Part shown: positions 13,911 through 59,207 of the stretch, piece by piece
How positions within the stretch are numbered: the stretch's first letter is position 1
How the letters are laid out: every line of letters starts with the position of its first letter
Source of the DNA: a bacterium
GTDB taxonomy: Bacteria; Fidelibacterota; UBA8477; JABMPR01
Assembly: GCA_013202895.1 (NCBI GenBank)
Contig: JABMPR010000256.1
Span: forward strand, 1-59,207
Direction of reading: 5' to 3'
Length of the DNA stretch: 59,207 nt
The notes under the pieces: model-generated
Seen by the model: only the letters and a program-made list of their open reading frames with translations
The model's database searches: none
Told to the model about the DNA's origin: nothing
Made by a program: the position numbers and the translations under genes

Positions 13911-14497
13911 TGCTGAATCTAGCCATGATTATCACTGCGGCAGGGCGCTCAACGCGATTCCCACCAAATAAACTGCTGAACAAGCTGGAAAAACGAACGG
14001 CAATCGAACATACCATAAACACTTTTATCGATTTTGATCTGGATCTTTATGTCATCCTTGGTTATCAAAGCGACTTGATACAGGATGTTCTCGAAAAAAA
14101 CTATGGGAGTAAACTGATCTTTGAATACAACACTCAATTTCACACTGGTCTTTCAAGCTCTGTGATCACCGGAATTAAAGCTGCTGGTAGAACCTACGAC
14201 TACTGGTGTTTTTGTCCAGGTGATAAACCTTTCATTCAGCAAAAAACCGTTAGGTTGCTGATCCAGAAACTCGAACAGGAAAAGCCTCTGATTCTGGCTC
14301 CTCGTTTTCAAAATAAACCGGGGCATCCCACCTTTTTCTCAACTGAATTATCCCCACAGTTTAGTGCTGCTACTGGTGACGTTGGCGGTCGCCAGATCAT
14401 CGATGCTTTTCGTCACGAAACATTATTCTGGGATGTGGCTGATGAGGGGGTCAGCCTAGATATGGACTACTATCTTGAATTTGAGAATGTTCGCTGA
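13910..14497 (+). CDS. MobA/MocA-like nucleotidyltransferase (YgfJ-family Mo-hydroxylase accessory protein)
   Basis: 195 aa. The N-terminal IITAAGRSTRF motif and PGDKPF are characteristic of the MocA/YgfJ family. Its start overlaps the yqeC stop as TAATG. Confidence 0.75.
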   Translation: MLNLAMIITAAGRSTRFPPNKLLNKLEKRTAIEHTINTFIDFDLDLYVILGYQSDLIQDVLEKNYGSKLIFEYNTQFHTGLSSSVITGIKAAGRTYDYWCFCPGDKPFIQQKTVRLLIQKLEQEKPLILAPRFQNKPGHPTFFSTELSPQFSAATGDVGGRQIIDAFRHETLFWDVADEGVSLDMDYYLEFENVR

Positions 14498-43413: not shown

Positions 43414-43929
43414 CTAGAATGGGCTATAGCGGGCAATGGACATACCTAGCAGTGCAATTCCCATAAATGCCAAAGCCACTTTACCGGTGAGTCCTAAGCG
43501 AGCTCCAAGCGTTTGCATTGCCAATCCCTGCTCCGGCGTGGGTGGTCCCTCATTTGATTGAATTTCGCGACCGATCACCTGCATCTGATTAAGGATGCTT
43601 CGAATAAGGAATAACGCAATAAACCAGGCTATCAGACCAGCAGTAACTCCACTCGTGAGAAGAATCCCATAGCCGCTTGCCATAAAATTTTGAGTCCCCG
43701 CCAGAGGCCAATAAATCACAAGTCCAGATAGCATGGTAAGAGTTGCTGCTGTATAAACTGAATTCATTAGTTGAGTATTAAAGGAAAGATGCTGCATGAA
43801 TTTCTGTCCTTCAGCCCCAGTAGCCTTAACTGCTGGCTGTAAAAAGACAATATTTGCAAAAGCAAATCCGACCCAGAACACACCACAAAATATGTGAATT
43901 ATCCGTAGTGGAATAATAAGTGCACCCAT
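43414..43929 (-). CDS. Integral membrane protein, unknown function
   Basis: 171 aa with 4 hydrophobic helices. I recognise no motif. Confidence 0.5.
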   Translation of the reverse strand: MGALIIPLRIIHIFCGVFWVGFAFANIVFLQPAVKATGAEGQKFMQHLSFNTQLMNSVYTAATLTMLSGLVIYWPLAGTQNFMASGYGILLTSGVTAGLIAWFIALFLIRSILNQMQVIGREIQSNEGPPTPEQGLAMQTLGARLGLTGKVALAFMGIALLGMSIARYSPF

Positions 43930-44128: not shown

Positions 44129-44743
44129 CTAGAGACTCATCATTAAAAAGCCTGTAAAAGCAGCACTGTTTGGAGAGAGAGCCGGGGACACATGAGATTT
44201 CATTTCATTAACAATGGATTGGTACTTCTTATAAAATTCCCATGATGGTCTGGGTTTATACTCCAGGGAATCCAATTCGAAGTGATCTATGACCCCCTTG
44301 GCGGTTGTGGGTTTCACAAAAACTTCATTCAGGGGCTCAAAATAGGTTGGCCAAAGACTTATCAACGACCATTTAGCCAATTTATCACGACTCAAAAGCT
44401 CAAGTAAAACCTCAAAACCCTCTTGCTTGTTGCCATGCAGTCGTTTTTGCATTCCCCGTGCCAACAGCTCCTGCTCCCCGCGATTTAGGGAATAGGCAAA
44501 ATCTCTAAATTTTGGCTTTTCAAACATGGATACCATAGAAGAACGACTAACAATTTTGTTCAAACTCTCAACAATTTCCACCGGTGATTTGAAATTCTGT
44601 TTGGCCAGGCTATCCTGGGCGAAAAGGATTATTTTGTCCATTTTATGCTTTTTCCCAATTTCCAACATCTCGGGGTTCTCAAAGCCACCGGGATAGCGTT
44701 TTAAAAATGATGCTTCTGCCTGCTTCAATTTATCTAGATTCAT
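44129..44743 (-). CDS. Hypothetical protein
   Basis: 204 aa, soluble, with coding-like composition. I do not recognise a family. It is divergent from the purine cluster. Confidence 0.5.
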   Translation of the reverse strand: MNLDKLKQAEASFLKRYPGGFENPEMLEIGKKHKMDKIILFAQDSLAKQNFKSPVEIVESLNKIVSRSSMVSMFEKPKFRDFAYSLNRGEQELLARGMQKRLHGNKQEGFEVLLELLSRDKLAKWSLISLWPTYFEPLNEVFVKPTTAKGVIDHFELDSLEYKPRPSWEFYKKYQSIVNEMKSHVSPALSPNSAAFTGFLMMSL

Positions 44744-44963: not shown

Positions 44964-46610
44964 ATGACATATACAAGCTGTATCCTTTCCGGTAGAATTG
45001 TTGATGTACTTAATCAACGAATTTTTCCGGGGAAAATTGAGATCGTTGATGGGAAAATCACTTCGGTGACAGAAACACCTGTTTCAGATACCCGGCACAT
45101 TCTTCCGGGACTTATTGATGCCCATATTCATATCGAAAGTTCTATGCTTATCCCCACCGAATTTGCCAGAGCAGCAGTCATCCATGGAACGGTTGCCACG
45201 GTGTCAGATCCGCATGAGATCGCCAATGTTTTGGGGATGCGGGGTGTTAATTTTATGCTTGAGAATGCAAAGCAGACCCCTTTCAAATTTTATTTTGGGG
45301 CACCATCATGTGTCCCTGCAACGCCATTTGAGACGGCAGGTGCCAGCATCTCCGTCAAGGAAATCAAAGAGCTCCTTGATCGGCCAGAGATTGTAAGTCT
45401 CTCGGAAATGATGAATGTTCCAGGCGTACTCAACGATGCCCCTGATGTAATTGAAAAACTGTCACTCGCTCAATCCGCCGGTAAAGTGGTTGATGGTCAC
45501 GCTCCTGGCTTACGAGGGGAGGCGGTTGGCAAATACGTTGGCGCCGGGATCACTACGGACCATGAATGCTTTACTATAGAAGAAGCCCATGAAAAATTAG
45601 CTTTGGGGATGCAGGTGCAAATCCGTGAAGGTTCGGCTGCTCGCAATCTGGATGATCTGATCCCACTCCTTGACAGCCATTATAAAAATTGCATGCTTTG
45701 CAGTGATGACAAACATCCTGATGATCTGGCTGAGGGACATATTAACAAAATGGTAAAACGAGCCCTTGACGCTGGAATCGCACCCCTAAAAGTGCTGTGG
45801 AGCGCTTCCGTCACCCCCATCAAAACCTATGGTCTTGAGGTTGGCTTGCTACAGGTTGGTGATTCGGCAGATTTGATAATCGTTGATGATTTGAATAATT
45901 TCGAAATCCTCGAGACCTATATCGATGGAGTCTGTGTTGCCCAATCGGGCACCACGCATCTCGTTTCTCAGCCTAGCGATCCCATAAACCATTTCGAAGC
46001 CCAATTACAAAAACCTGAGCAGTTAAGAATAAAGCCAAAATCAGCAGTTATCCCGGTTATCGAAGTGATTGACGGTCAACTTGTTACCAAGAAATTTATG
46101 TGGACTCCCCTATTGGATGATAAGGGCTATATTCAAACCGACCTGGATACCGATATATTGAAAATTGCTGTTTTAAATCGCTATTCTCTATCTCAACCGG
46201 CCATTGCATTTATAAAGAACTTTGGATTAAAGCAGGGAGCTATTGCATCATCCGTTGCCCATGATTCTCATAATATTGTTGCTGTCGGTACCTCAGACAC
46301 GGCTCTGGCCGATGTCATGAATCTGGTTATTGAAAACAAAGGCGGTATTGCTGCTGTTACAAACGAAGGGGAGCATGTCTTAGCCTTAGCGGTTGCCGGG
46401 ATCATGTCTAATGAAGATTGTTTCAAGGTTGGCCAAGCCTACGGTCGCATGGACGAATTGGCAAAAGAAATGGGATCTCAATTGAGTGCCCCATATATGA
46501 CACTCTCCTTCATGGCATTGCTAGTTATACCAGAAATCAAATTGAGCGACAAAGGTTTGTTTGATGGAGATAAATTCGAGTTTTTAGATGTATTTGAGCG
46601 ATATAATTAA
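44964..46610 (+). CDS. ade: Adenine deaminase
   Basis: 548 aa. ILPGLIDAHIHIESSM and SDPHEIANV are amidohydrolase metal ligands in the Ade-type arrangement. Confidence 0.85.
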   Translation: MTYTSCILSGRIVDVLNQRIFPGKIEIVDGKITSVTETPVSDTRHILPGLIDAHIHIESSMLIPTEFARAAVIHGTVATVSDPHEIANVLGMRGVNFMLENAKQTPFKFYFGAPSCVPATPFETAGASISVKEIKELLDRPEIVSLSEMMNVPGVLNDAPDVIEKLSLAQSAGKVVDGHAPGLRGEAVGKYVGAGITTDHECFTIEEAHEKLALGMQVQIREGSAARNLDDLIPLLDSHYKNCMLCSDDKHPDDLAEGHINKMVKRALDAGIAPLKVLWSASVTPIKTYGLEVGLLQVGDSADLIIVDDLNNFEILETYIDGVCVAQSGTTHLVSQPSDPINHFEAQLQKPEQLRIKPKSAVIPVIEVIDGQLVTKKFMWTPLLDDKGYIQTDLDTDILKIAVLNRYSLSQPAIAFIKNFGLKQGAIASSVAHDSHNIVAVGTSDTALADVMNLVIENKGGIAAVTNEGEHVLALAVAGIMSNEDCFKVGQAYGRMDELAKEMGSQLSAPYMTLSFMALLVIPEIKLSDKGLFDGDKFEFLDVFERYN

Positions 46611-46658
46611 CTGCACCAAACAGATCAATTATGTTCACAACGAATTGAAAAAGGGAAA

Positions 46659-48923
46659 ATGAGCTCTCAAAGCCACAATATTGGGACGAGACTAAAACGG
46701 GTCGATGCTCGAGATAAAATCATTGGCGTAACCCGGTTTTTAACAGATCTAGAGGTGGAGAATATGCTTCATGCAGCACCCATCTATTCCCCTGTTGCAA
46801 ATGGCCGACTTCTAAGTATTGATGGCAGTCCTGCAGAAGGGGATCCAGATTTTGTTGCTCTCTTCACCGCTCAGGATATTCCAGGAGAGAATCAAGTTGG
46901 GGTAATCATAGAAGACCAGCCCCTATTGGCAGACGAGGTGGTGAGATACATCGGTGATAGTGTTGGTCTCCTTGTAGCAAAAACCCCTGAATCTGCACAG
47001 CGTCTGGCACGGCTTGTTGTTGTGAATATCGAAACCATGGAAGCAATTTTTTCAATTGATGATAGCCGCGATGCAAGCTCGGGATTTTTGCATGAAACCA
47101 ATCTGGCCTGCCAGCACCAGGTGAAGCGGGGAAACCCTGAGGCTGGATTTAAGGCCTCCGACCAGATCATCGAAGCCAGCTTTGAAACACCCTTCCAGGA
47201 GCACTATTATCTCGAACCCCAGGGCTGCATTGCTCAATCAACGCCAACGGGTGGCATCTATATTATTGGATCAATCCAATGTCCCTTCTATGTTCAAAAA
47301 GCAGTCTCTAAAGCACTGGCAATACCCTTTGCCAAAATCAAGGTTGAACAAGCTCCTATTGGAGGTGCTTTTGGAGGCAAAGAGGATGTTCCATCAGAAA
47401 TCTGTGCCCGAGCTGCGCTTGCTGCTCAAATACTGCAAAAACCTGTTAAAATAATATACGGGCGCACCGATGATGCCCAGCTCACAAGCAAACGCCATCC
47501 TTTTCAAATGCATTATAAAGTGGGGGTGACCAACGAGGGGAAACTACTGGCGGCAGACATCAAACTTGAAGAAAATGCTGGTGCCTATGCCACCCTTTCT
47601 TCAGTGGTTTCTTATAGATCAGCCATGCAGGCCATGGGTCCATATGTGATTCCAGACATCTCAGTTGAATCCAAATCCTATTATACCAATCTTCCGCCCA
47701 CAGGGGCCTTTCGGGGATTTGGTTCTCCTCAGGCCGCTTTTGGACATGAACGAATAATGGATATTATTGCTAGCAAGCTAAAGCTGGATCCTGTGGAACT
47801 GCGACTCAGAAATATTTTGAAACCCGACACCAAAACATTGACGGGGCAGTTACTAATATCCAGTGTGGGAGCTGAAGAAACGCTACGATCAGCAACCCAG
47901 GCTGCAAATTGGTCTTCGCAGGATGCCAATTCAGATTCCCGCTGGAAGACCGGGTATGGTGTCTCTCTCATTCACTATGGAAATTGTCTTGGGGCTGCCG
48001 GGTGGTTCATGGATGGTAGTGGTGTTAAAATAAAAATTCATCGGGATGCTAGTATTTCGGTTGCTTTTGGGCTGGTTGAAATGGGTCAGGGGGCTCTCAC
48101 AGTGGTGACCCAAATGACGGCGGAAGCCCTGGGTGTGGAGCCATCAAGAATTATGGTCATGCCAACAGACACCGATCAGGTACCGGATAGCGGTCCGGCA
48201 GTTGCCAGTCGTAATGTAATCATGACAGGGAATGCCATTCGAGATGCCGCCAGAAAACTGCTGCCAATCCTGAAAGAGGCTGCTGCTGAACTTATGCAGT
48301 GTGATCTAAACGAAATCAAGCTTGAAAAGGGTTTAGTCTATAGCACAAGAAACAATGAGTCAATTTCATTTGAGGAACTGACCAACTATTTATATTTGTC
48401 AAATCGACCCATGGACGCTCTAGGATGGTGGCATGTCCCAGCATTGAAGTATGACGCCGTCACTGGTACTGGAGAGGCCTATTTCACGTATTCCTACGCC
48501 ACTCACGTAGCTAAAGTGAAAGTTGATACTTTGACAGGCCTGGTAAAGGTGGAAAAGATATGGGCATCCCATGATGTCGGGCGTGCCATCAATCCTGCTG
48601 GTCTGGAAGCGCAGATTGAAGGTGGGACAGCTCAAGGCATTGGCTGGGCACTTACAGAACACTTTAAAACAGATCTTGGGAAAGTCCTGTCAGACAACCT
48701 TACTACCTATCTTCTGCCCACGGCATTGGATGTTGGCGATATAGAATCTATTTTTATTGAAGACCCGGAACCTGAAGGTCCCTGGGGGGCAAAGGGAGTC
48801 GGAGAGCCAGCAATTATCCCCACAGCGGGAGCCATCGCAAATGCCGTCAGTAATGCCATTGGAAGACCGATTAACAGCATTCCCATATTACCGGAAGATG
48901 TTCTAGAAATGATGAATGGATGA
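46659..48923 (+). CDS. Xanthine dehydrogenase family, molybdopterin-binding large subunit (candidate selenium-dependent hydroxylase)
   Basis: 754 aa. Carries GGAFGGKE, TGAFRGFG, QGEGQ-like QMTAE and the WGAKGVGEPA catalytic Glu region. Confidence 0.85.
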   Translation: MSSQSHNIGTRLKRVDARDKIIGVTRFLTDLEVENMLHAAPIYSPVANGRLLSIDGSPAEGDPDFVALFTAQDIPGENQVGVIIEDQPLLADEVVRYIGDSVGLLVAKTPESAQRLARLVVVNIETMEAIFSIDDSRDASSGFLHETNLACQHQVKRGNPEAGFKASDQIIEASFETPFQEHYYLEPQGCIAQSTPTGGIYIIGSIQCPFYVQKAVSKALAIPFAKIKVEQAPIGGAFGGKEDVPSEICARAALAAQILQKPVKIIYGRTDDAQLTSKRHPFQMHYKVGVTNEGKLLAADIKLEENAGAYATLSSVVSYRSAMQAMGPYVIPDISVESKSYYTNLPPTGAFRGFGSPQAAFGHERIMDIIASKLKLDPVELRLRNILKPDTKTLTGQLLISSVGAEETLRSATQAANWSSQDANSDSRWKTGYGVSLIHYGNCLGAAGWFMDGSGVKIKIHRDASISVAFGLVEMGQGALTVVTQMTAEALGVEPSRIMVMPTDTDQVPDSGPAVASRNVIMTGNAIRDAARKLLPILKEAAAELMQCDLNEIKLEKGLVYSTRNNESISFEELTNYLYLSNRPMDALGWWHVPALKYDAVTGTGEAYFTYSYATHVAKVKVDTLTGLVKVEKIWASHDVGRAINPAGLEAQIEGGTAQGIGWALTEHFKTDLGKVLSDNLTTYLLPTALDVGDIESIFIEDPEPEGPWGAKGVGEPAIIPTAGAIANAVSNAIGRPINSIPILPEDVLEMMNG

Positions 48924-50235
48924 TATGAACCAGATTTTATTGAACAAGCTGAGAATAATGAATCCCTTTGGAAAGCCAGAATTTTTGGATGACGCAGCGA
49001 TCATCATCGAGGATGGAAACATCAACTCAATTATTAGTGGTCATTCTCCGGATGGATTCCAAGGTGATATCTTTGATATGGGAGGCAAAACGGTGCTGCC
49101 TGGTATGATCAATGCCCATACGCACCTTTATTCCTCCCTGGCTCTTGGCATGCCGCCACCCAAAAACATACCTGGTGATTTTGTAGAAATCCTTAAAGAA
49201 ATCTGGTGGAAACTAGATTTGGCATTGGATCATTCCTCCGCTCAAGCTTCATTTGAGTCAGGGTTACTGGACTGTATTTTAAATGGGGTCACGACAGTTA
49301 TTGATCATCATGCCAGTCCCAATTTTGTGTCAGGTTCATTAGATTTACTGGTAGCTAGCGCTGAAAAGTTTGGAATCAACATCAGTGTCTGTTTTGAGGC
49401 TTCTGATCGTAATGGTCTCGAGAATTTCCAACAAGAACTTGATGAGAGTCTACACGCCCTTGAAAAATATAGGGATCATCCCCATGTGCTCCCCTTGATT
49501 GGCCTGCATGCTTCTTTTACATTGTCGGACGAATCTCTACAAAAGGTTAGTGATAGCCTGCAAGGTCATCAGGATTGGGGAATCCATATCCATGTGGCCG
49601 AGGATCTGGCAGATGAGAGAGATGCCAAGAGTAGAGGCTATGCATCCGTCATTGAACGCCTGGATCATTTTAGTCTCCTGAATAACCGATGCTTGATTGT
49701 GCATGGGATTTTCATAACCCGTCAGGACAGACAGACATTGCTCCAGCATGGCTGTAAATTAATCCACAACCCATCATCCAACGCCAACAACCGAGTGGGA
49801 ATCCTTGAGACTGAGATCATCGATTCATTGCACGCTGGTTTGGGAACGGATGGTAAACAAAACAACATGCTGGCCGAGGTCAATCAGGGACTTCTCATCC
49901 GTTCTGCAAAAGCATGTGAGCCTGTAAATTATTTAGAGCTATTATTCAAAAATAATCCCAACATTGCATCTCACTTATTTGCTAAGAGTTTAGGGCGCAT
50001 TTCTGCGGGAGCCCAGGCAGACCTGGTGTTTTATGATTATCATCCCCGGACTGAGATTCATGCTGATAATTTTATGAGCCACATTCTGTACGGGTTTGAA
50101 AAGCCAAGTGATGTCATGAGTCACGGGATTTTTCGGGTGCGGAATGGCAGGCTTCCGGACATTGATGCAGGCGCTATTTTGGAAAATGCTAAAATCCAGT
50201 CCTCACGTGTCTGGGAAGCAATGCAAAAGCATTGA
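48916..50235 (+). CDS. ssnA: SsnA-like aminohydrolase (chlorohydrolase / cytosine-guanine deaminase family)
   Basis: 439 aa. Carries PGMINAHTHLYS, IHVAED and LGTDG. Its position next to the XDH, ygeY and ygeW genes matches the SsnA context. Confidence 0.7.
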   Translation: MDDMNQILLNKLRIMNPFGKPEFLDDAAIIIEDGNINSIISGHSPDGFQGDIFDMGGKTVLPGMINAHTHLYSSLALGMPPPKNIPGDFVEILKEIWWKLDLALDHSSAQASFESGLLDCILNGVTTVIDHHASPNFVSGSLDLLVASAEKFGINISVCFEASDRNGLENFQQELDESLHALEKYRDHPHVLPLIGLHASFTLSDESLQKVSDSLQGHQDWGIHIHVAEDLADERDAKSRGYASVIERLDHFSLLNNRCLIVHGIFITRQDRQTLLQHGCKLIHNPSSNANNRVGILETEIIDSLHAGLGTDGKQNNMLAEVNQGLLIRSAKACEPVNYLELLFKNNPNIASHLFAKSLGRISAGAQADLVFYDYHPRTEIHADNFMSHILYGFEKPSDVMSHGIFRVRNGRLPDIDAGAILENAKIQSSRVWEAMQKH

Positions 50236-50316
50236 GGTGCTGGTAAACTTTGATATATGTAATTTTCCATATACTCCATATTTGCAGTATTAAATAAGTT
50301 ACGGAAGACCAATAAT

Positions 50317-51528
50317 ATGAACATTGAATTTGATCAAATTCTGAAACAAGCTGAGACTTACCGGGCCGATATTTCTCGTTTTTTACGTGATATGATCGCC
50401 ATCCCCAGTGAAAGTTGCCATGAAGAGCAGGTCATCTTGCGTATCAAGGCAGAGATGGAAAAGGTCGGTTTCGATAAAATTGAAATAGATGAAATGGGGA
50501 ACATTTATGGTACCATTGGACATGGCTCTCATGTCATTGCTATGGATGCTCATGTTGATACTGTAGGTGTCGGGAATATTGAGAATTGGGAGGTCGACCC
50601 TTATAAAGGTTTTGAAGATGAGGAAATCATCATGGGTCGAGGTGCCTCAGATCAAGAAGGCGGGATGGCCAGTATGGTTTATGCCGGAAAGATTATAAAA
50701 GATCTGGGTCTTACAGCTGATTATACCCTGATAATAACAGGCACTGTACAGGAAGAAGATTGTGATGGGCTGTGCTGGCAATACATCATGGACAATAAAA
50801 AAATTCAACCGGAATTTGTGGTAAGCACGGAGCCGACTTCCTGCCATATTTATCGTGGACAACGGGGTAGAATGGAGATTAAAGTCACTACGTCTGGCAT
50901 CAGTGCCCATGGTTCTGCCCCTGAACGTGGAGACAATGCCATCTACAAAATGGCGCCAATCCTGCAAGAACTTGAGGAATTGAATTATCATCTGGCAGAT
51001 CATGAGTTTCTTGGGAAAGGATCTCTTACAGTATCTGAGGTCTTTTTCAGTTCACCTTCACGTTGTGCCGTTGCAGATGGTTGCTCAATTTCTATCGATC
51101 GTCGTCTGACTATAGGCGAGACAGCCGAGACAGCACTAAAGGAGATTGGTGAATTGCCAGCAGTAATGGCTGCCAAAGCCACTGTGGAAATGTATGATTA
51201 TGAACAAGCTAGCTACACTGGTTTCACCTATGCTACCGAAGCATATTTTCCGACCTGGCTGATTGATGAAGATCATAATGTCACGCAAGCTTTGGAAGAT
51301 GCTTATCAGGGGCTTTTTAAGGAAGCTCCCATTGTTGATAAGTGGACATTTTCCACAAATGGGGTTGCTATCATGGGACTTTATAATGTACCCTGCATCG
51401 GATTTGGTCCAGGAGCAGAAGTTGAAGCACATGCCCCCAATGAGAAGACCTGGAAAAGCCACTTGGTAAAGGCGGCTGCAATGTATGCAACCATACCACT
51501 CGCCTATATCGCTAGAATTAAAGCATAA
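50317..51528 (+). CDS. ygeY: YgeY-family M20 peptidase/deacylase (selenium-metabolism-linked hydrolase)
   Basis: 403 aa. It is near-colinear with E. coli YgeY as I recall it: [68 protein letters not shown] and [15 protein letters not shown]. Confidence 0.85.
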
Positions 51529-51608
51529 TATTGCACAGGTTTCTGGTTTTCGTTAATGACGCTATCAAAACGAACTGAACCTTTCCAGGATATCATTATT
51601 GGAGAAGC

Positions 51609-52766
51609 ATGAATACCATAATTGAAAAGATAAAAACTCTGGATTTGAGGAAGTATGGACATGATTTTCTGTTAACCTGGGACAAATCACCTGACGAGCT
51701 TGAAGCAACCTTACTTTTAGCTGAGTTAATGAGAGAAAGACATCGTTTGGGAAAATCCAACCTGGTTTTTAATTCCGGATTGGCCGTATCCATTTTTAGA
51801 GACAAAAGCACCAGGACCCGTTTCAGCTTTGCTTCTGCAGCAAACGCATTGGGTCTGGCGGTATCGGATATGGATGAAGAGAAATCACAGATTTCCCATG
51901 GTGAAACGGTGCGTGAAACAGCTAACATGATTTCCTTTATGACACGCGTGATCGGTATCAGAGATGATGTGTATCTTGGTGAAGGTCACACCTACATGCA
52001 GGAGGTTTCTGAAGCCGTGCAAACCGGCTTTGAGGAAGGTGTCCTGCATAACCGTCCTGGCTTGGTTAATCTCCAGTGCGATATTGACCATCCAACCCAG
52101 AGTATGTCTGACCTGGCTATGTTAAAAAATTATTTTGGTTCACTGGACCGATTGAAGGGCAAAAAAATCGCTATGACATGGGCTTATTCACCCAGTTATG
52201 GCAAACCGCTATCTGTGCCCCAGGGAATTATTGGATTACTCACTCGCTATGGAATGAATGTCACGCTGGCACATCCCGAAGGCTATACACTTATACCTGA
52301 AGTGCTTGAACTGGCTAAAAATCAAGCGCAAAGTACGAGTGGATCATTCCATGTAAGCAACGATATGGATGATGCCTTTAGTGACGCAGATATAGTCTAT
52401 CCAAAATCCTGGGCTCCATTTCAGGTTATGGAAAAGCGCACCAGCCTTTTAACACAAGGGAATCGTGCTGGTCTCCAGGATCTGGAAAAAACCTGTCTGG
52501 AAAACAATGCCAAATTTACAGGCTGGGAATGTACCGAAGAGAAGATGAAACTGACCAAAGATGGTAAAGCGCTCTATATGCATTGTCTACCCGCTGATAT
52601 TACAGGCATAAGCTGCGAGCAAGGCGAAGTAAGTGCTTCCGTATTTGACAGGTATCGTCGTGATACATATATGGAAGCAAGCTACAAGCCCTTTATTATA
52701 GCGGCCATGATGTTTCTGACCAGTTTAAAAGATCCCAGGGCCGTGCTTAACAAATTGGCAGATTAA
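51609..52766 (+). CDS. ygeW: YgeW-type knotted carbamoyltransferase
   Basis: 385 aa. Carries FRDKSTRTRFSF, HGETVRETANMISF, LVNLQCDIDHPTQSM, MTWAYSPSYGKPLSVPQGIIGL and LYMHCLPADI, which closely resemble E. coli YgeW. Confidence 0.9.
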   Translation: MNTIIEKIKTLDLRKYGHDFLLTWDKSPDELEATLLLAELMRERHRLGKSNLVFNSGLAVSIFRDKSTRTRFSFASAANALGLAVSDMDEEKSQISHGETVRETANMISFMTRVIGIRDDVYLGEGHTYMQEVSEAVQTGFEEGVLHNRPGLVNLQCDIDHPTQSMSDLAMLKNYFGSLDRLKGKKIAMTWAYSPSYGKPLSVPQGIIGLLTRYGMNVTLAHPEGYTLIPEVLELAKNQAQSTSGSFHVSNDMDDAFSDADIVYPKSWAPFQVMEKRTSLLTQGNRAGLQDLEKTCLENNAKFTGWECTEEKMKLTKDGKALYMHCLPADITGISCEQGEVSASVFDRYRRDTYMEASYKPFIIAAMMFLTSLKDPRAVLNKLAD

Positions 52767-52918
52767 AAATGATCTTATTTTTTCAGCGAAGTTCACAAAC
52801 GTGATTTACAAGCAGAAAATCAACATGACTCTGGTTGAACCTTGTGATGAACCGAATAATTGCCTAAAGTAATTTGTAGAATTTGCCCAATAAGCGGATT
52901 TAAAAAAGAAAGTCCAAG

Positions 52919-54385
52919 ATGAACTCGAAACAAATACTCAAAAACACAATTCAGCGCTGCAAAGAGCAGAATATTATCCTGCCAACCTACAAGCAGATGG
53001 CAAATCCAGAATTGATTCCAGAGGGGATTAAAGATGAGCTAAAACAGGGTATTGGTCTATGGGATCTTAATCCTCGTAACCTGTTTCGACTCACCTGGCA
53101 GAATGAACCCGTGCCCTCTGGAGGCGGCTTTGGAGATGTGAATTATCTTGAACTACCCTCCGAAATGACAGGCACAAAAGCCCGAATAATTGTGCTTATT
53201 GGGAAATTCTTTCCAACGGGTGCCCATAAAGTCGGAGCCACGTTTGGTCCCTTGGTTGAAAAGCTGATAACTGGTCATTTTGACCCTACCCACCAGAAGG
53301 CTCTTTGGCCTTCGACAGGTAATTATTGTCGTGGTGGTGCCTATGATGCCTCTCTCCTGGGATGCCCCTCAATTGCCGTTCTACCAGAAGAAATGTCCCG
53401 GGAACGTTACGAATGGCTGGAACAAGTTGGTTCAGAAATTATTCTGACCCCGGGTGGAGAAGCCAATGTCAAGGAGATCTATGATAAGGTTAAACAATTA
53501 AAAGCAGAGCGTGGGGATGACATCGTTGTGTTAAACCAATTTGATGAAATTGGAAATCCCATGTGGCATTATGCTGTAACGGGTCACGCCATGGAGAAAG
53601 TATTTAATAGCATCAATTCGGGGGAGGCACGCTTTAGTGGCTTATTCCTGACCCAGGGCTCTGCAGGAACCCTTGGTTCAGCCGATTATCTGCGAACCCG
53701 ATTTCCCAGATTGACAGTGGCTGCAGGGGAAGCTCTTCAGGTTCCGACTCTCCTACAAAATGGCTATGGCGCTCATCGTATTGAGGGTATCGGAGATAAA
53801 CATGTCCCCTGGATTCACAATATGAAAAACATGGATATGGTTATTGGGATCGATGATAATATTTCCATGAATTTGATGCGATTGTTTAATGAACCTATAG
53901 GACATGATCTGCTAAAAAGCAAAAAGATCAATCCTAATTTAATCAATAAACTTGATTACCTGGGAATTTCCAGCATTGCAAACATAGCTGGAGCCATCAA
54001 ATTAGCCAAATATTACGAGTATAATGAGCATGATGTTGTCTTCACGGTGGCAACCGATTCTATGGAAATGTATCAATCTCGTCTTCAAGAATTGCTGGCA
54101 AGCGAGGGTGATTACACTGAAATCCGGGCAAATGTGGATTTTGAACGCTATCTCCAGGGATTGGATGATGAAGGTGTACTGGAACTTACCTACCGGGACA
54201 AGAAACGCATGCACAATCTGAAATATTTCACCTGGATCGAACAACAGGGAAAGACCGTGGAAGAATTGGATGCGCAATGGTATGATGACAATTACTGGTC
54301 GTCAAAATTTGCTCTGGCAGATGATTGGGATGAAAAGATTGAAGCCTTTAATGCAGAAACAGGCTTACTGAAGAAATACATTTAA
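52919..54385 (+). CDS. Fold-type II (TrpB/CysK-like) PLP-dependent enzyme, unknown specificity
   Basis: 488 aa. FPTGAHKVGA is a candidate PLP-lysine motif and TQGSAGTLGS a candidate phosphate-binding loop. N- and C-terminal extensions make it longer than CysK. The subfamily is not recognised. Confidence 0.6.
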   Translation: MNSKQILKNTIQRCKEQNIILPTYKQMANPELIPEGIKDELKQGIGLWDLNPRNLFRLTWQNEPVPSGGGFGDVNYLELPSEMTGTKARIIVLIGKFFPTGAHKVGATFGPLVEKLITGHFDPTHQKALWPSTGNYCRGGAYDASLLGCPSIAVLPEEMSRERYEWLEQVGSEIILTPGGEANVKEIYDKVKQLKAERGDDIVVLNQFDEIGNPMWHYAVTGHAMEKVFNSINSGEARFSGLFLTQGSAGTLGSADYLRTRFPRLTVAAGEALQVPTLLQNGYGAHRIEGIGDKHVPWIHNMKNMDMVIGIDDNISMNLMRLFNEPIGHDLLKSKKINPNLINKLDYLGISSIANIAGAIKLAKYYEYNEHDVVFTVATDSMEMYQSRLQELLASEGDYTEIRANVDFERYLQGLDDEGVLELTYRDKKRMHNLKYFTWIEQQGKTVEELDAQWYDDNYWSSKFALADDWDEKIEAFNAETGLLKKYI

Positions 54386-54397
54386 AGTATCGGCATC

Positions 54398-55639
54398 ATG
54401 AAGATAGAAGAGATAAAGGGATTACAGTGCTACCAGTGCAACTGCCTATTCCCCATTGATCCTTTCCCTTACACTTGTCCCCAATGTGGAAAGAATCTGG
54501 ATTATATTTATGATTATGAAATGATCAAGAGTTCGTGGACAAAAACTGGACTTGAGCAAAATCCAGATCTATCTATGTGGCGATACCACCCCTTACTTCC
54601 AGTAAGTCAGGTCCCCGACAATACTTCCCTCAGGGTTGGTGGAACTCCGCTCGTGAACTTGCCAAAGATCGCCAATCAGCATGGACTGTCCACATTCCAG
54701 ATCAAGGATGACACACGTAATCCCTCCGGATCGTTGAAGGATCGAGCAAGTGAAGTGGGGATACAACACGCTCTTGAATTGGGAAAAGATACAATTGTTG
54801 GTGCCTCCACCGGCAATGCCGGGTCTTCGCTGGCAGCACTAGCAGCACATCATGGTTTTACCAGCGTCATATTTGCTCCAGCAAATGCACCACCAGCTAA
54901 ACTGGCTCAGATTCGCCAACATGGCGCAAAACTGATAGCTATAGATTCAAATTATGACCGTGCTTTTGACCTGGCTATTGAATGGACAAAATTGAACAAT
55001 CATTACTCACGTAACACTGGATATAATCCTATTCTGGCAGAGGGGAAAAAAACGGTCGCTTTTGAGATCGCTGAACAAAATAACTGGCAGGTCCCGGATC
55101 ATATCTTTATCCCTGTGGGCGATGGTTGCATTATCTCAGGTGTCTATAAGGGGTTTTTTGATTTACTGGCCCTGGATTGGATTGACCACATGCCAAGATT
55201 ACATCCAGTTCAAGCCCACGGATCGGCGGCAATTGTAAACAGTCTTTCTCGCGAGGGTGCGATTGAAAGTGTGCAAGCACAAACCCTTGCAGATAGTATC
55301 AGCGTCGATAAACCACGAGATGGGGAAAAAGCGCGTCGCGCCATTTTAGCAAGTGGTGGCGTCGGATTTAAGGTCAGTGATGACGAAATATTATCTGCCC
55401 AACAGGCATTATCCGGGTCTACCGGATTGTTTGCTGAACCCGCTGCTGCTGCAGCCTATGCTGGATTTCTCCAGGCCTCAGAAAAGATTTTTTTCAATGC
55501 AGACGATAAAGTTACGGTTCTGATCACAGGTACTGGTTTAAAAGATATTCCAGCTGCACAGAAAAATCTGGGTTCGCTTGAGATCATACCGGCAGAAATA
55601 TCTGAAATTGAGAATTATTTAAGCCGGGATAATAAATAG
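54398..55639 (+). CDS. Threonine synthase-like PLP enzyme with an N-terminal zinc ribbon
   Basis: 413 aa. Carries CYQCN...CPQCG, MWRYHPLLPV, GGTPLV, NPSGSLKDRAS and STGNAGSS, the arrangement of archaeal/Thermotoga-type ThrC. Its placement inside a purine cluster argues against housekeeping ThrC. Confidence 0.65.
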   Translation: MKIEEIKGLQCYQCNCLFPIDPFPYTCPQCGKNLDYIYDYEMIKSSWTKTGLEQNPDLSMWRYHPLLPVSQVPDNTSLRVGGTPLVNLPKIANQHGLSTFQIKDDTRNPSGSLKDRASEVGIQHALELGKDTIVGASTGNAGSSLAALAAHHGFTSVIFAPANAPPAKLAQIRQHGAKLIAIDSNYDRAFDLAIEWTKLNNHYSRNTGYNPILAEGKKTVAFEIAEQNNWQVPDHIFIPVGDGCIISGVYKGFFDLLALDWIDHMPRLHPVQAHGSAAIVNSLSREGAIESVQAQTLADSISVDKPRDGEKARRAILASGGVGFKVSDDEILSAQQALSGSTGLFAEPAAAAAYAGFLQASEKIFFNADDKVTVLITGTGLKDIPAAQKNLGSLEIIPAEISEIENYLSRDNK

Positions 55640-55641
55640 AC

Positions 55642-56130
55642 ATGCTGCATCATCCTTCACCGACCCCTTTTCAACTCGCTGTAACTGTCAACGGCAAATT
55701 AGTGGAAAGAGAGGTGGTCACACATCTCCGATTAATGGATTTTCTGCGTGATGATCTTGGGCTGACAGGGACCAAAGAAGTCTGCGGAGAAGGAGAGTGT
55801 GGTGCCTGTACGATCATCATGGATGGCCAGACTGTCAATTCCTGTTTGATTCTGGCTGTTGAGGCACAGGGTCGCGAAATTCTGACCATTGAAGGTCTGG
55901 CTGATATGGATGCATTAACACAGCTTCAAAAAGCTTTTGAGGATCACCATGCTGTCCAGTGTGGCTATTGTATTCCCGGGATGGTGCTCATCGGTGAAAA
56001 GCTATTGGAACGCACGCCCCAGCCAACCCGCGCTGAAATCAAATATGAGCTCTCGGGGAATATTTGCCGTTGCACAGGATATCATAAGATTGTCGATGCC
56101 ATTGAGAATGCCACGGATAAGCACGCATAA
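55642..56130 (+). CDS. Xanthine dehydrogenase family [2Fe-2S] small subunit
   Basis: 162 aa. Carries CGEGECGACT (plant-type cluster) and QCGYCIPG...CRCTGY (second cluster). Confidence 0.9.
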   Translation: MLHHPSPTPFQLAVTVNGKLVEREVVTHLRLMDFLRDDLGLTGTKEVCGEGECGACTIIMDGQTVNSCLILAVEAQGREILTIEGLADMDALTQLQKAFEDHHAVQCGYCIPGMVLIGEKLLERTPQPTRAEIKYELSGNICRCTGYHKIVDAIENATDKHA

Positions 56131-56187
56131 AATGGAAATGTATACGCTTAATTTGGGGAATGCTGGTCCTACTGAGGTTTTCAAAGC

Positions 56188-57009
56188 ATGAAATACTACT
56201 GCCCAAAAACGCTCGCAGAATATTTCGATTTGTCCAAAAGCATAGCTGCGTTTGATGTTTCAGTTATAGCGGGTGGAACCGATCTCGTGCCTCGCTATGA
56301 GCGAGGTGATCATTTACCTGATTACCTGATCGATTTGAAACATTTGTCTGAGATAAACAGCATTGAAGTCGATGATGACTCGATTAAAATTGGGTCCCTC
56401 TCGACCATCCAAAATATTCAGGATCATTCTCTCATTCAGGAAGAATTTGGCGCGCTGCATAGTGCGGCCTATGATTTTGCTGGAGCACAGATTCGTCATC
56501 GGGGAACGATAGGTGGAAATATCTGTAATGCATCGCCGGCAGGAGATTTACTCCCACCACTCTACGCTTTTGAGGCTATGTTAACACTACAGGGACCCGC
56601 AGGTGAGCGACAAATCCCTATTGGTGAATTTATCCTTGGTCCTGGGGCCACCGACTTGCGGGTGAGCGAATTATTGACCGGCGTAACACTAGTCCGCAAG
56701 GGCTATCAATCCCTTTTTCAAAAGGTGGGTCTGCGTCAATCCATGGCTATCTCAGTATTAAATCTGGCATGCGTGTTTGAGGGTAAACATCAAGCACCCA
56801 CTCATCTTAGAATCACTGCGGGAGCTGTTGCCCCAACAGTTGTAAGCCTGGACGCTTTCTGCGAAGCTTATAAAGCCGCTCCCGGCAAGCTGAGTGAGCT
56901 ATTGGGATTAATCGATGAAGCTATCTCCCCTATCGACGATATTAGAGCAACAGCAAATTATCGTCATACGGTATTGAAAAACCTAATTAAAGAGATCTTA
57001 AAAAATTGA
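56188..57009 (+). CDS. Xanthine dehydrogenase family FAD-binding subunit (CoxM/YgfM-like)
   Basis: 273 aa. Carries IAGGTDL, HRGTIGGNICNASPAGD and ATANYR. Confidence 0.85.
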   Translation: MKYYCPKTLAEYFDLSKSIAAFDVSVIAGGTDLVPRYERGDHLPDYLIDLKHLSEINSIEVDDDSIKIGSLSTIQNIQDHSLIQEEFGALHSAAYDFAGAQIRHRGTIGGNICNASPAGDLLPPLYAFEAMLTLQGPAGERQIPIGEFILGPGATDLRVSELLTGVTLVRKGYQSLFQKVGLRQSMAISVLNLACVFEGKHQAPTHLRITAGAVAPTVVSLDAFCEAYKAAPGKLSELLGLIDEAISPIDDIRATANYRHTVLKNLIKEILKN

Positions 57010-57014
57010 GCGGT

Positions 57015-59207
57015 ATGATGAACGATAAATTATACCCTGTATCCATTCAGCACCTGGTGAGCTGGATGCTGGCAGAGCTTAAATCGGATCAACTTTTCGG
57101 CATTCCCAGAGAGCTCTTTTTCGAACCGAAACGTTCAGATCCATTTTGCATGAACCGGTACGGACAAAGGCTTGAAACACCTATAGGGGTGGCAGCCGGA
57201 CCACATACTCAACTCTCCCAGAATATCATTGCTGCCTGGTTATGTGGGTCCCGCTATATGGAACTTAAGACGGTTCAAACGCTTGATGAATTAGAAGTCA
57301 GCAAACCCTGTATTGACATGCAGGATGAGGGTTATAATTGTGAGTGGTCCCAGGAGCTCAAATTAAAACAATCCCTCGATGAATATCTTAACGCCTGGAT
57401 TGCTATCCATCTTCTTCGTCATCACTTTGCTTGGGAATCAGACCAGGGACCAGGTGTTATTTTTAATATGAGTGTAGGCTATGATCTGGCTGGCATATTG
57501 AAACCAAATGTCCAGCATTTTATGGCTCGAATGGATAACAGTCAGGACCTTTTGGATCAGAAATTGGATCTCTTAACAAAGATTTACCCCCCTGTAAAGG
57601 ACTTAAAAATCCCGGCTCGTATGACAGACAATATTACCCTCTCAACCATGCATGGTTGTCCCCCTGATGAAATCCAGCGTATTGCCAACTATTTAATTAC
57701 AGAAAAAAAACTGCACACGGCTGTCAAACTCAATCCGACTCTTTTAGGGTCAAATCAACTACGTCAAATATTGAATCATGATCTGGGGTTTGATTCGGTC
57801 CAAGTCCCAGATGAAGCATTTGATCATGACCTCAAATATCCTGAGGCAGTTAAGCTTATCAAAAGCTTGCAGACCGATGCCAAAAATAGCGGTGTAGAAT
57901 TTGGTTTGAAACTGACCAACACATTGGAGGTGGAGAATCATCGCCCGGTGTTTCCGGAGCAGGAAAGCATGATGTATCTCAGCGGTCGAGCCCTGCACCC
58001 CATCAGTATCAATCTGGCGGCAAAACTTCAGCAAGAATTCAATGGTGCCCTGGATATTTCCTTTTCTGCAGGGGCTGATGCTTTCAATGTTTCGGATTCG
58101 CTTGCCTGTAATATGCGACCCATCACCACCTGTACCGATGTCCTTAAGCCAGGCGGTTATTCTCGCCTCGGACAATATCTGAGCCGGCTCTCAGCGGATA
58201 TGCTCGAAGACAACGCGCAAAGCATAGATGAATTCATAATTGGACGGGATGAATCAGCCCGGGATTTATCACAGGCAGGATTGAATAATTTGATAGATTA
58301 TGCAGAACGAGTCATTCAAAATCCACGCTATCATAAGCACAATCATCATTTTGATTCAATAAAAACAGCCCGTAAGCTGAATGCCTTTGATTGTATTGCA
58401 GCACCCTGTGTTGATCTGTGTGCGATTAACCAGGATATTCCAGAATATCTCCATTACACGGCTCAAGCTGATTTCAAACAAGCCTTTGCTGCTATTCAAG
58501 ATACCAATCCCCTCCCAGGTGTAACGGGACATGTTTGTGATCATCTGTGTCAATTGAAATGTACCCGCAATAATTATGATTCACCGCTTCTGATTCGAGA
58601 AATCAAACGTTTTGTTACTGAACGGGAAATTGATAAACAGCCCACTACATCCGCGAAGACCACCAACCACAAAATTGCTGTTATCGGAGCGGGGCCCGCT
58701 GGCTTGTCCTGTGCTTATTTTCTGGCAAAAGCAGGAGTCGGTGTCAGTGTATATGAAGCCAAACCATTCTCCGGCGGCATGGCATCCGATGCAATTCCAG
58801 AATTCAGGTTATCGGATGATGTAATCAATCTGGACACCGGCGTGCTCGAAAAGCTGGGGGTGCGTTTTAATTATGGCGCTCGGATTGATAAAAATACTTT
58901 TAAAGATCTCCAAAAAGATTACACCCATGTATTTATCGGTGTGGGCGCTCAAAAAGCGTTAACCATGGGGGTGGCAGGTGAGGAGCTTGCAGGTGTTTTA
59001 GATCCTTTGCGCTTTCTATCCGAAATCCGGCAGGGCAGTCGACCCGCGTTAGGTAATAATGTTGCTATAATCGGTGGTGGAAATACTGCCATGGATGCCG
59101 CTCGCACAGCGCTTCGATTGTCAGGTGGGTTGGGTAATGTAAATATTTTATATCGCCGTACGAAAGCAGAGATGCCAGCGGATATTTATGAAATCGAAGC
59201 TGCGCTG
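57015..59207 (+). CDS. ygfK: YgfK-like iron-sulfur flavoprotein (DPD/GltD-like), 5' partial; open to the window end
   Basis: Manual translation from ATG 57015 gives 731 codons with no stop, which is why the ORF track lacks it. MMNDKLYPVSIQHLVSWMLAE...GVAAGPHTQLSQNIIAAWLCGSRYMELKTVQ...FNMSVGYDL...STMHGCPPDEI...VKLNPTLLG...GHVCDHLCQLKCTR...KIAVIGAGPAGLSCAYFLAKAG closely parallels E. coli YgfK as I recall it. Confidence 0.85.
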   Translation, partial: MMNDKLYPVSIQHLVSWMLAELKSDQLFGIPRELFFEPKRSDPFCMNRYGQRLETPIGVAAGPHTQLSQNIIAAWLCGSRYMELKTVQTLDELEVSKPCIDMQDEGYNCEWSQELKLKQSLDEYLNAWIAIHLLRHHFAWESDQGPGVIFNMSVGYDLAGILKPNVQHFMARMDNSQDLLDQKLDLLTKIYPPVKDLKIPARMTDNITLSTMHGCPPDEIQRIANYLITEKKLHTAVKLNPTLLGSNQLRQILNHDLGFDSVQVPDEAFDHDLKYPEAVKLIKSLQTDAKNSGVEFGLKLTNTLEVENHRPVFPEQESMMYLSGRALHPISINLAAKLQQEFNGALDISFSAGADAFNVSDSLACNMRPITTCTDVLKPGGYSRLGQYLSRLSADMLEDNAQSIDEFIIGRDESARDLSQAGLNNLIDYAERVIQNPRYHKHNHHFDSIKTARKLNAFDCIAAPCVDLCAINQDIPEYLHYTAQADFKQAFAAIQDTNPLPGVTGHVCDHLCQLKCTRNNYDSPLLIREIKRFVTEREIDKQPTTSAKTTNHKIAVIGAGPAGLSCAYFLAKAGVGVSVYEAKPFSGGMASDAIPEFRLSDDVINLDTGVLEKLGVRFNYGARIDKNTFKDLQKDYTHVFIGVGAQKALTMGVAGEELAGVLDPLRFLSEIRQGSRPALGNNVAIIGGGNTAMDAARTALRLSGGLGNVNILYRRTKAEMPADIYEIEAAL

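Follow-up and report, generated by a model that had tools for sequence, protein, structure and literature searches.

A probable purine catabolism cluster in a Fidelibacterota contig

Contig JABMPR010000256.1 (assembly GCA_013202895.1) comes from an uncultured bacterium of the Marinimicrobia/Fidelibacterota in the FCB group, and we analyzed a stretch of 59,207 nucleotides, positions 1 to 59,207 of its forward strand, referred to here as the window. From position 44964 to the window end, the listing of open reading frames (ORFs) shows ten tightly packed ORFs on the plus strand, which we assigned to families by NCBIfam and Pfam scans. This part of the window, 44964-59207, makes up the first 14 kb, or two-thirds, of a cluster whose 15 genes share one direction and span about 20.8 kb, and which probably encodes a variant of the anaerobic, reductive degradation of purines and uric acid, the 2,8-dioxopurine pathway.

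The cluster opens with ade, encoding an adenine deaminase of 548 aa (44964-46610; TIGR01178), followed by Mo1, a molybdopterin subunit of the xanthine dehydrogenase (XDH) family (46659-48923; 754 aa; best models pucD and XdhA, below cut-off), and an SsnA-like amidohydrolase (48916-50235; 439 aa; best family NF005540, below cut-off). Next come YgeY, an M20 ureido-group hydrolase (50317-51528; 403 aa; TIGR03526), and YgeW, a knotted carbamoyltransferase (51609-52766; 385 aa; NF005538 and TIGR03316), and then two enzymes dependent on pyridoxal 5'-phosphate (PLP): PLP1, of fold-type II (52919-54385; 488 aa; only a weak match to Pfam PALP), and the threonine-synthase-like PLP2 (54398-55639; 413 aa; TIGR00260). 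FeS1 (55642-56130; 162 aa; Fer2 and Fer2_2) and FAD1 (56188-57009; 273 aa; FAD_binding_5 and CO_deh_flav_C) would be the [2Fe-2S] and FAD subunits belonging with Mo1, and the window closes on the 5' part of ygfK (57006-59207; TIGR03315), the gene of a predicted Fe-S flavoenzyme, which holds 734 of its 1099 codons and continues off the window. All ten genes thus lie on the plus strand in the order, and with the families, that a first-pass annotation made from the letters alone had proposed.

Intergenic distances from ade to ygfK are 48, −8 (or +1), 81, 80, 152, 12, 2, 57, and −4 (or +5) nt, the longest spacer being the 152 nt between ygeW and PLP1 (52767-52918). The earlier description of the gaps as short therefore stands, while the 8-nt overlap that it gave for 48916-48923 depends on the start chosen for the SsnA-like gene. 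Two ATGs lie in one frame there, at 48916 and 48925; the first makes the junction with Mo1 overlap by 8 nt, and the second, which the JGI gene caller took, leaves a gap of 1 nt. The start of ygfK is likewise 57006 or 57015.

An exact-protein look-up with FAD1 led us to a 107.5-kb JGI metagenome contig (L001) that is 99.99% identical to the window across 13,020 bases and is therefore the window's own continuation. Reading the sequence downstream to about 21 kb past the window end, we found that the cluster reaches about 6.6 kb beyond the window. After ygfK, the order on L001 is a gene for a four-helix-bundle protein of the 23S-rRNA-IVP type, 8-oxoguanine deaminase (OGD), and a second set of molybdenum enzyme subunits, FAD2, FeS2, and Mo2, the last gene of the cluster; tag, dinB, a CLC channel, TrmO, a peptidase, and other genes unrelated to the cluster follow. 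Rfam returned no match at E ≤ 1 for a riboswitch or other RNA element in 39000-59207, candidate terminators and promoters inside the cluster were no commoner than in shuffled sequence, and the spacers in the window held no repeats of note. A single transcription unit is contradicted by no feature and proven by none.

Using PLP1 as the query against a single genome from each species, we obtained 80 loci, whose ORFs we labelled by BLAST against the cluster proteins and against Escherichia coli HyuA, YqeA, and YgeX. The first-pass annotation had made its reading depend on co-conservation in relatives, and the same arrangement recurs in 18 of these loci, all from species-level genomes: Mo1-SsnA-(YgeY)-YgeW-(CK)-PLP1-PLP2-FeS1-FAD1, where CK is carbamate kinase, mostly going on to YgfK-OGD-FAD2-FeS2-Mo2 where the contig allows. 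These loci belong to Marinimicrobia, Fidelibacterota, and a few other metagenome-assembled genomes, and the recurrence argues that the separation of the molybdenum subunit is an inherited layout rather than an assembly artefact or chance. Only the 12 closest relatives and L021 carry ade at the cluster head. L016 instead has an ABC permease and a deaminase of the ADA family ahead of Mo1, which fits a purine-entry role for the first position.

Two further features of these clusters can be noted. The four-helix-bundle gene of L001 (14225-14581, about 2 kb past the window) encodes 118 aa of the family TIGR02436, and relatives carry comparable small ORFs (four-helix-bundle or unlabelled, 92-198 aa) in varying spacers, namely ade/Mo1, FeS1/FAD1, FAD1/ygfK, and ygfK/OGD, which fits a mobile cassette. 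Separately, five loci from Cloacimonadota and WOR-3 (L030, L047, L069, L075, and L081) have two adjacent YgeW-like ORFs with about 30% identity to the YgeW of the window, then carbamate kinase, and no YgeY nearby. Should these ORFs be separate genes rather than parts of a single ORF, phosphorolysis might account for the removal of both ureido groups in these loci.

Several of the catabolic enzymes pass the cut-offs of curated families. Ade scores 603.5 bits against TIGR01178 (cut-off 472.5) and carries Pfam Amidohydro_1 and Adenine_deam_C (PF13382, 187 bits), as expected of an adenine deaminase, which bears out the earlier placement of such an enzyme in the first ORF of the cluster. YgeY reaches 676 bits on TIGR03526 (cut-off 321.5), and YgeW reaches 647 bits on NF005538 (cut-off 453) and 629 on TIGR03316 (cut-off 500). 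The window fragment of YgfK, residues 1-734, scores 773 bits on TIGR03315, and the full-length protein of 1099 aa (L001 10831-14130) reaches 958 (cut-off 835). For the SsnA-like protein, the best families are NF005540 (362 bits, cut-off 444) and TIGR03314 (338 bits, cut-off 455.5), with the next family at 123 bits; it is presumed to be the ring-opening hydrolase that partners YgfK. The family placements suggested at first thus hold at equivalog level for Ade, YgeY, YgeW, and full-length YgfK, but SsnA is below the cut-off of its best family and the XDH models are not passed. Similarly, the closeness to the proteins of the E. coli ygeV-xdhD region that had been claimed from recall is evident for YgeY (69% identity to the K-12 protein) and YgeW (62%), and only moderate for YgfK (37%) and SsnA (32.5%). 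OGD, encoded on L001, scores 589 bits on the 8-oxoguanine deaminase model (cut-off 532) and matches the solved enzyme 7WW2 over its full length with 435 bits.

In the published pathway, urate is converted to 2,8-dioxopurine by XdhD-YgfM in E. coli (Li et al., PMC12507026) and by XdhAC in Clostridium sporogenes (Liu et al., 10.1101/2025.04.24.650524; published in Nature Microbiology), the latter requiring two molybdenum hydroxylases, a xanthine dehydrogenase and a urate reductase. YgfK then reduces the ring, opening by SsnA gives ureidomethyl-hydantoin, and HyuA gives 2,3-diureidopropionate; YgeW releases one ureido group as carbamoyl phosphate, which YqeA uses for ATP, hydrolysis by YgeY gives 2,3-diaminopropionate, and YgeX gives pyruvate and ammonia (PMC12507026; 10.1101/2025.04.24.650524). 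In the cluster described here, we propose that Ade would convert adenine to hypoxanthine, that the split Mo1/FeS1/FAD1 enzyme would oxidize hypoxanthine and xanthine to urate, and that the OGD homologue would feed 8-oxoguanine or guanine into the same pool. FAD2/FeS2/Mo2, as the counterpart of E. coli YgfM-XdhD, would then reduce urate to 2,8-dioxopurine, after which YgfK would reduce the ring and the SsnA-like hydrolase would open it. YgeW would take one ureido group off as carbamoyl phosphate, YgeY would hydrolyze the other, and PLP1 and PLP2, instead of YgeX, would convert 2,3-diaminopropionate or ureido-alanine to pyruvate and ammonia. Inference from homology underlies every catalytic step in this scheme; it also underlies our view of which molybdenum enzyme does what and, most of all, the part given to PLP1 and PLP2.

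Two molybdenum enzymes in one cluster

Five genes, spanning 6.7 kb, separate the end of Mo1 from FeS1 in the ORF listing, just as the first-pass annotation had reported when it described XDH subunits split by five inserted genes. That split is real and conserved, and two parts of the description can be refined: the split enzyme resembles XdhA/XdhB, with an XdhD/YgfM-like set lying past the window, and the two PLP enzymes among the five genes do not appear to be incidental inserts (see below).

The split set has the canonical features of an XDH. The best families for Mo1 are pucD (493 bits) and XdhA (484 bits), all under their cut-offs. Its Glu/Arg/Glu triad is complete (GGKED, FRGFG, and GEPA), which we take to correspond to the substrate-binding Glu and Arg and the catalytic Glu of XDH, residues 802, 880, and 1261 of the bovine enzyme, and it lacks the insertion found in XdhD. 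FeS1 contains Pfam Fer2 and Fer2_2, scores 179 bits on an XdhC-type model, below its cut-off, and is 41% identical to E. coli XdhC, while FAD1 contains FAD_binding_5 and CO_deh_flav_C. The triad motifs and the three cofactor subunits are therefore all present, with scores on the curated XDH models below cut-off. The solved structures nearest to Mo1 are the XDH of Rhodobacter capsulatus (1JRO) and bovine XDH.

The second set lies at 16100-19583 of L001, where FAD2 (245 aa), FeS2 (158 aa), and Mo2 (758 aa) are contiguous and colinear with ygfM-xdhD, again with all models below cut-off. Mo2 has Gln at the first triad position. Its nearest solved relative is 4-hydroxybenzoyl-CoA reductase, a reductive dehydroxylase, and no XDH was among its matches to solved structures at E ≤ 1e-60. 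The two sets also diverge in their scores: Mo1 gives 332 bits to E. coli XdhA and 219 to XdhD, compared to 442 and 469 for Mo2, and on the XdhD model TIGR03313 Mo1 scores 229 bits and Mo2 571. The FAD subunits behave alike, with FAD1 giving 107 bits to E. coli XdhB and 45 to YgfM, compared to 29 and 61 for FAD2, which matches the YgfM model only. Lastly, Mo2 carries the XdhD-specific insertion with the glutamate of a GEG motif that corresponds to E606, a residue that Li et al. (PMC12507026) stress because the active site of XdhD has it and XdhA does not. Taking together the model and pairwise scores, the insertion, the gene order, the triad, and the nearest solved relatives, we consider it likely that the split Mo1/FeS1/FAD1 enzyme is an ordinary, XdhA/XdhB-like xanthine dehydrogenase and that the downstream FAD2/FeS2/Mo2 enzyme is the urate reductase.

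Two points weigh against this assignment. Neither set passes any of the XDH subunit models, and the two experimentally verified urate reductases differ in architecture, the Clostridioides difficile enzyme having been assigned by proximity despite low homology (Li et al., PMC12507026), so that the roles of Mo1 and Mo2 could be reversed. In such a swap, the split set would be the urate reductase (DOPDH) and the Mo2 set the xanthine dehydrogenase. Mo1 does sit amid the genes of the downstream pathway and outscores Mo2 on the model of selenium-dependent XDH, TIGR03311 (447 compared to 330 bits), and in clusters of Bacteroidales and Cloacimonadota, the sole molybdenum enzyme adjoining SsnA and the two PLP genes resembles Mo1 (about 30% identity) and is without the XdhD insertion. 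Homology alone, moreover, cannot recognize urate reductases (Li et al., PMC12507026). On the other hand, Mo2, FeS2, and FAD2 agree with XdhD and YgfM in model score, insertion, gene order, and pairwise score, whereas the nearest solved relatives of Mo1 are true XDHs and its triad is kept, and that of Mo2 is a reductive enzyme. We thus regard swapped roles as doubtful, although this is the strongest of the alternatives considered here, and we retain the split enzyme as the probable xanthine dehydrogenase.

A pair of PLP enzymes at the position of YgeX

PLP1 and PLP2 are, like YgeX (DpaL), fold-type II PLP enzymes, and they are placed where ygeX would be expected, with 12 nt between them in the window. 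PLP1 belongs to a compact and strongly conserved family: it scores 51 bits on Pfam PALP and passes no NCBIfam model, identity is at least 66% over the 80 loci, which cover at least 12 phyla, and only 276 of 1.84 billion representatives match it at E ≤ 1e-30. It consists of a cysteine-synthase-type core with about 170 extra residues. Four motifs, FPTGxHKVGA (the lysine motif), PSTGNYCRGG, GSAGTLG, and GIGDKHVPW, vary little or not at all among 81 sequences. An AlphaFold2 model (predicted local distance difference test [pLDDT] 84.8, pTM 0.88) gave as best Foldseek matches CysK, β-cyanoalanine synthase, and CBS, and also the O-ureido-L-serine synthase DcsD, with target-normalized TM-scores of 0.75-0.81 to the PLP1 core and identities of 21-26%. 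PLP1 thus shares its core fold and the S-T-G-N carboxylate loop with the O-acetylserine sulfhydrylase/β-substituted alanine synthase family; it differs in the extra residues, the lysine motif, the HRIEGIGDKHVPW loop, and the absence of any curated model that it passes. That loop, in residues 276-297 (about 53744-53809; motif PTLL..G.HRIEGIGDKHVPW), is the best conserved part of the protein, mostly invariant, and the only segment with a pLDDT below 50. In the model, it may be a mobile active-site lid or a loop that is ordered by a partner or substrate. The enzymes on which the PLP1 core superposes all act at the β carbon of three-carbon amino acids, which is the chemistry that diaminopropionate or ureido-alanine would need.

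A CysK/CysM-like gene lies on the minus strand 6 kb upstream of the cluster (37478-38656; 312 bits on TIGR01136, cut-off 344), so PLP1 is not the sole cysteine-synthase-fold enzyme of the cell.

PLP2 passes the threonine synthase model TIGR00260 (191 bits, cut-off 167), scores 267 bits on NF006050 (cut-off 303), and aligns with four solved threonine synthases (ThrC; 6CGQ, 2ZSJ, 2D1F, and 1UIM) over the whole catalytic domain at E = 1e-50, with the PLP lysine kept. However, PLP2 departs from the four solved ThrCs at five positions where these do not vary: T88A, N154T, S155G, R160L, and N188D, in the numbering of the Thermus thermophilus enzyme. From work on that enzyme, we take these residues to be the ones that bind the phosphate of the substrate O-phosphohomoserine. 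All 46 of 46 PLP2 orthologues lack the ThrC residues there, having A, T, G/A, L/T/M, and D, respectively, with the new Asp invariant. PLP2 therefore appears to be an enzyme derived from threonine synthase that has lost the phosphate site, and since the ThrC residues are replaced throughout these orthologues, its public label of "threonine synthase" is probably wrong. Besides these replacements, PLP2 is set apart from short bacterial threonine synthases by an N-terminal CxxC...CxxC zinc ribbon. The source gene call gives PLP2 only 372 aa, compared to 411-413 aa in homologues; the ORF from 54398 adds the ribbon, and 54398 is probably the true start. The best 120 matches of PLP2 are all of the Marinimicrobia type, with no other genomic context among them.

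Neither enzyme looks like YgeX. On the YgeX model NF006058 (cut-off 276), PLP1 scores 18 bits and PLP2 66.5, and a profile comparison of PLP1 with YgeX by hhalign gave a probability of 32%, which suggests that PLP1 is related to YgeX by shared fold alone. Of the proteins in the region, PLP2 comes nearest to YgeX (24% identity, 43 bits). The Asp120 of YgeX, presumably a catalytic residue, is kept in neither protein, both having Thr at that position, so if diaminopropionate is degraded, it is by a different mechanism.

The pairing with the pathway is nonetheless widespread. At least one pathway gene lies within 10 kb of PLP1 in 66 of the 80 loci, across many phyla, and PLP2 does so in 47, whereas YgeX is near PLP1 in a single locus that is not a purine cluster. 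We conclude that the PLP pair is, as far as gene neighborhoods can tell, a conserved feature of a pathway variant and not a set of incidental inserts. The published neighborhood survey of Li et al. (PMC12507026) used PF00291 as its YgeX marker, under which PLP1 and PLP2 would have counted as YgeX, and our literature search found no paper describing either enzyme.

Absent neighbors define the variant further. The first-pass annotation had recognized no YgeX, HyuA hydantoinase, or YqeA carbamate kinase within the window, and tblastn with the E. coli proteins and with 34 homologues from the clusters of closer lineages confirmed this. It had also advised extending the contig past 59207 in search of the three genes, and none turned up there: the E. 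coli queries found no homologue in the window or L001, and the 34 homologues showed superfamily-level similarity at most over a contiguous stretch of about 80 kb, made up of the window, L001, L084, L085, and L086. Within this search space, there was no homologue of HyuA with either set of queries, no match at all for carbamate kinase, and, for YgeX, only the superfamily-level similarity to PLP2. In six more distant Marinimicrobia/Fidelibacterota loci (L016, L017, L018, L021, L022, and L025), a carbamate kinase gene directly precedes PLP1, with YgeW visible just upstream in five of the six, L018 beginning at the carbamate kinase gene. The 152-nt spacer of the window (52767-52918) occupies the position of this gene, and no remnant of carbamate kinase was detected in it. 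Overall, carbamate kinase is present in 19 and HyuA in 17 of the 80 loci, the latter mostly from Bacteroidales and Cloacimonadota and none from a Marinimicrobia-type cluster. Either the genome encodes the HyuA and carbamate kinase steps at another site, or the pathway bypasses them.

Two enzymes of the cluster were considered as replacements for the hydantoinase and rejected. OGD and HyuA never co-occur among the 80 loci, but this anti-correlation tracks phylogeny, and the full-length match of OGD to the solved 8-oxoguanine deaminase rules it out. Ade was ruled out by its pass at the adenine deaminase equivalog level, by its absence from several otherwise identical clusters, and by the ADA-family substitute in L016.

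From these observations, we tentatively propose, as a possibility that still falls somewhat short of even chances, that the FCB group and many other anaerobic lineages have an undescribed terminal branch of the pathway in which PLP1 replaces YgeX with PLP2 as its usual partner, and that the Marinimicrobia version also does without a HyuA-type hydantoinase or an ATP gain from carbamoyl phosphate. The pair might be a racemase and a lyase, a heteromer, or a C-β-N lyase acting on diaminopropionate or ureido-alanine. CuyB and CuyA, which act on cysteate, provide a published two-enzyme precedent on a β-substituted alanine, with a racemase and a D-specific lyase, and the stereochemistry of the pathway intermediates is an open question in published work.

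Against such a branch stand the 14 of 80 PLP1 loci that have no pathway gene nearby and the Thr that both enzymes have in place of Asp120. In two Spirochaetota loci, L051 (8608-9816) and L062 (8601-9788), PLP1 lies divergent beside a SerA-type 2-hydroxyacid dehydrogenase with an ACT domain (checked against Pfam in L051 and judged by similarity to it in L062), and there are no purine genes within 10 kb. Together with the 14 loci, this neighbor means that the substrate of PLP1 may be broader than the pathway, and hints that PLP1 handles β-substituted three-carbon amino acids more generally.

The same loci can be read as signs of an accessory role. It could be that the organism has the ordinary published pathway, with the genes for HyuA, carbamate kinase, and YgeX in another part of its genome, and that PLP1 and PLP2 are accessory or serve an amino acid side reaction. 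Our search for the three genes covered about 80 kb of the genome, and some more distant relatives have carbamate kinase and HyuA genes within their clusters, which means that these steps are not abandoned in the lineage as a whole. We find this explanation unlikely, since pathway genes flank PLP1 in most loci from many phyla, PLP2 is almost contiguous with it in the window, YgeX is near it in only one locus, which is not a purine cluster, and both folds act on small β- or γ-substituted amino acids, with PLP2 having lost its ancestral substrate site. The terminal branch with PLP1 and PLP2 thus remains our preferred, if tentative, reading.

Selenium cofactor genes, known systems, and significance

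The first-pass annotation had linked the cluster to selenium-dependent hydroxylases, and that link is strengthened by a maturation operon on the plus strand (13173-16305), 29 kb upstream of the cluster, with the order yqeC, mocA-like, yqeB, and xdhC-like. Within 13173-15293, YqeC scores 139 bits on TIGR03172 (cut-off 73) and YqeB scores 271 on TIGR03309 (cut-off 220), while the MocA-like and XdhC-like genes are below their cut-offs. In L020, L021, and L044, the selenium cofactor genes directly adjoin the cluster. YqeB and YqeC are marker genes of the selenium-dependent molybdenum hydroxylase trait and have been tied to the 2,8-dioxopurine pathway (Liu et al., 10.1101/2025.04.24.650524), and both molybdenum enzymes of the cluster probably depend on this cofactor system.

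At the level of the pathway, the original idea of a cluster for anaerobic purine or urate catabolism is supported by the family matches, the co-conservation, the presence of YqeB and YqeC, and biochemistry published since (PMC12507026; 10.1101/2025.04.24.650524). Several points count against it. HyuA was needed in the published reconstitutions (Li et al., PMC12507026; Liu et al., 10.1101/2025.04.24.650524), yet no homologue was found in the sequence searched; the ATP-yielding logic of YgeW is incomplete without carbamate kinase; the SsnA-like protein scores under both SsnA cut-offs; and the sequencing runs that contain the stretch are DNA only, with no RNA run among them. A different route altogether, be it reductive pyrimidine degradation, the classical fermentation of xanthine by clostridia ("xanthinase"), or a route limited to purine salvage and oxidation, might be suggested by the XDH subunit models, all below cut-off, and by the distant analogy of YgfK, SsnA-like, and YgeY to PydA, PydB, and PydC (Li et al., PMC12507026), but it is highly improbable given the equivalog-level matches to YgeW, YgeY, and YgfK, hallmarks of the reductive urate route, the two purine deaminases and two XDH-family enzymes in one cluster, and a neighborhood with no glycine or formiminoglycine genes.

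Assuming the 2,8-dioxopurine pathway, the cluster can be compared to two known systems. With the E. coli K-12 cluster, ygeW-ygeX-ygeY-hyuA-yqeA ... ygfK-ssnA-ygfM-xdhD (PMC12507026), it has YgeW, YgeY, YgfK, and an SsnA-like protein in common, as well as a YgfM/XdhD-like enzyme ordered FAD-FeS-Mo, an adjoining purine deaminase, the YqeB/YqeC/MocA genes, and a separate XdhABC-like XDH. Unlike in E. coli K-12, HyuA, YqeA, and YgeX are not within about 80 kb, and two other PLP enzymes stand between ygeW and the Fe-S gene; the counterpart of XdhD is encoded by two genes, one for the Fe-S and one for the Mo subunit; and the XdhA-like enzyme lies inside the same cluster, with its Mo gene far from its Fe-S and FAD genes and an adenine deaminase at the head. 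No transporter or sigma-54 regulator is nearby. Compared to C. sporogenes (10.1101/2025.04.24.650524), the same chemistry is expected, with two selenium-dependent molybdenum hydroxylases, one an XDH and one a urate reductase, and the YqeB/YqeC trait is present. However, the C. sporogenes reductase is a fused XdhAC whose electron donor is unknown, whereas both enzymes described here have three subunits, including FAD subunits. The cluster of Liu et al. is enriched in Bacillota and host-associated habitats (10.1101/2025.04.24.650524), whereas ours comes from an FCB-group bacterium in a water-column metagenome, and the sample names of close relatives hint at waters that are anoxic or stratified.

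The rest of the window is housekeeping in content (shikimate genes, PntAB, and others), and it also encodes a type IX secretion system (T9SS) sorting domain, which, together with the sources named for close homologues, assigns the organism to the Marinimicrobia/Neomarinimicrobiota of the FCB group. Upstream of ade on the minus strand are two divergent ORFs of 171 aa (43414-43929) and 204 aa (44129-44743), neither with a Pfam or NCBIfam match; a homologue 64% identical to the 171-aa ORF lies immediately upstream of ade in L005. Also on the minus strand, 1.8 kb upstream of ade, is a 539-aa protein with Rieske [2Fe-2S] and glutamate-synthase FMN domains (41523-43142), of which a homologue lies upstream of the cluster in L004 and in no other relatives. 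We dropped the 204-aa, 171-aa, and Rieske/GltB-like proteins, along with an EamA transporter, as members of the cluster, as they are mostly not conserved beside it in relatives.

The anaerobic uric acid pathway was solved in 2025 in gut bacteria only, and it is now seen as a cluster in the Marinimicrobia, which are known from environmental sequence alone. Existing surveys of its distribution relied on BLAST with Clostridium genes (10.1101/2025.04.24.650524) or on the generic PALP domain as a proxy for YgeX (PMC12507026), and as a result, different terminal enzymes in many environmental clusters would have gone unnoticed. The cluster described here is a clean example, with three published steps lacking a gene in the neighborhood. 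Confirmation of the role proposed for PLP1 and PLP2 would bring two new enzyme functions, put right thousands of annotations as "threonine synthase" or "cysteine synthase," and broaden the range of enzymes for engineering urate-degrading probiotics. If the terminal branch proposed for the Marinimicrobia is real, SAR406-type bacteria of anoxic waters would draw both carbon and nitrogen from purines and use them as an electron sink.

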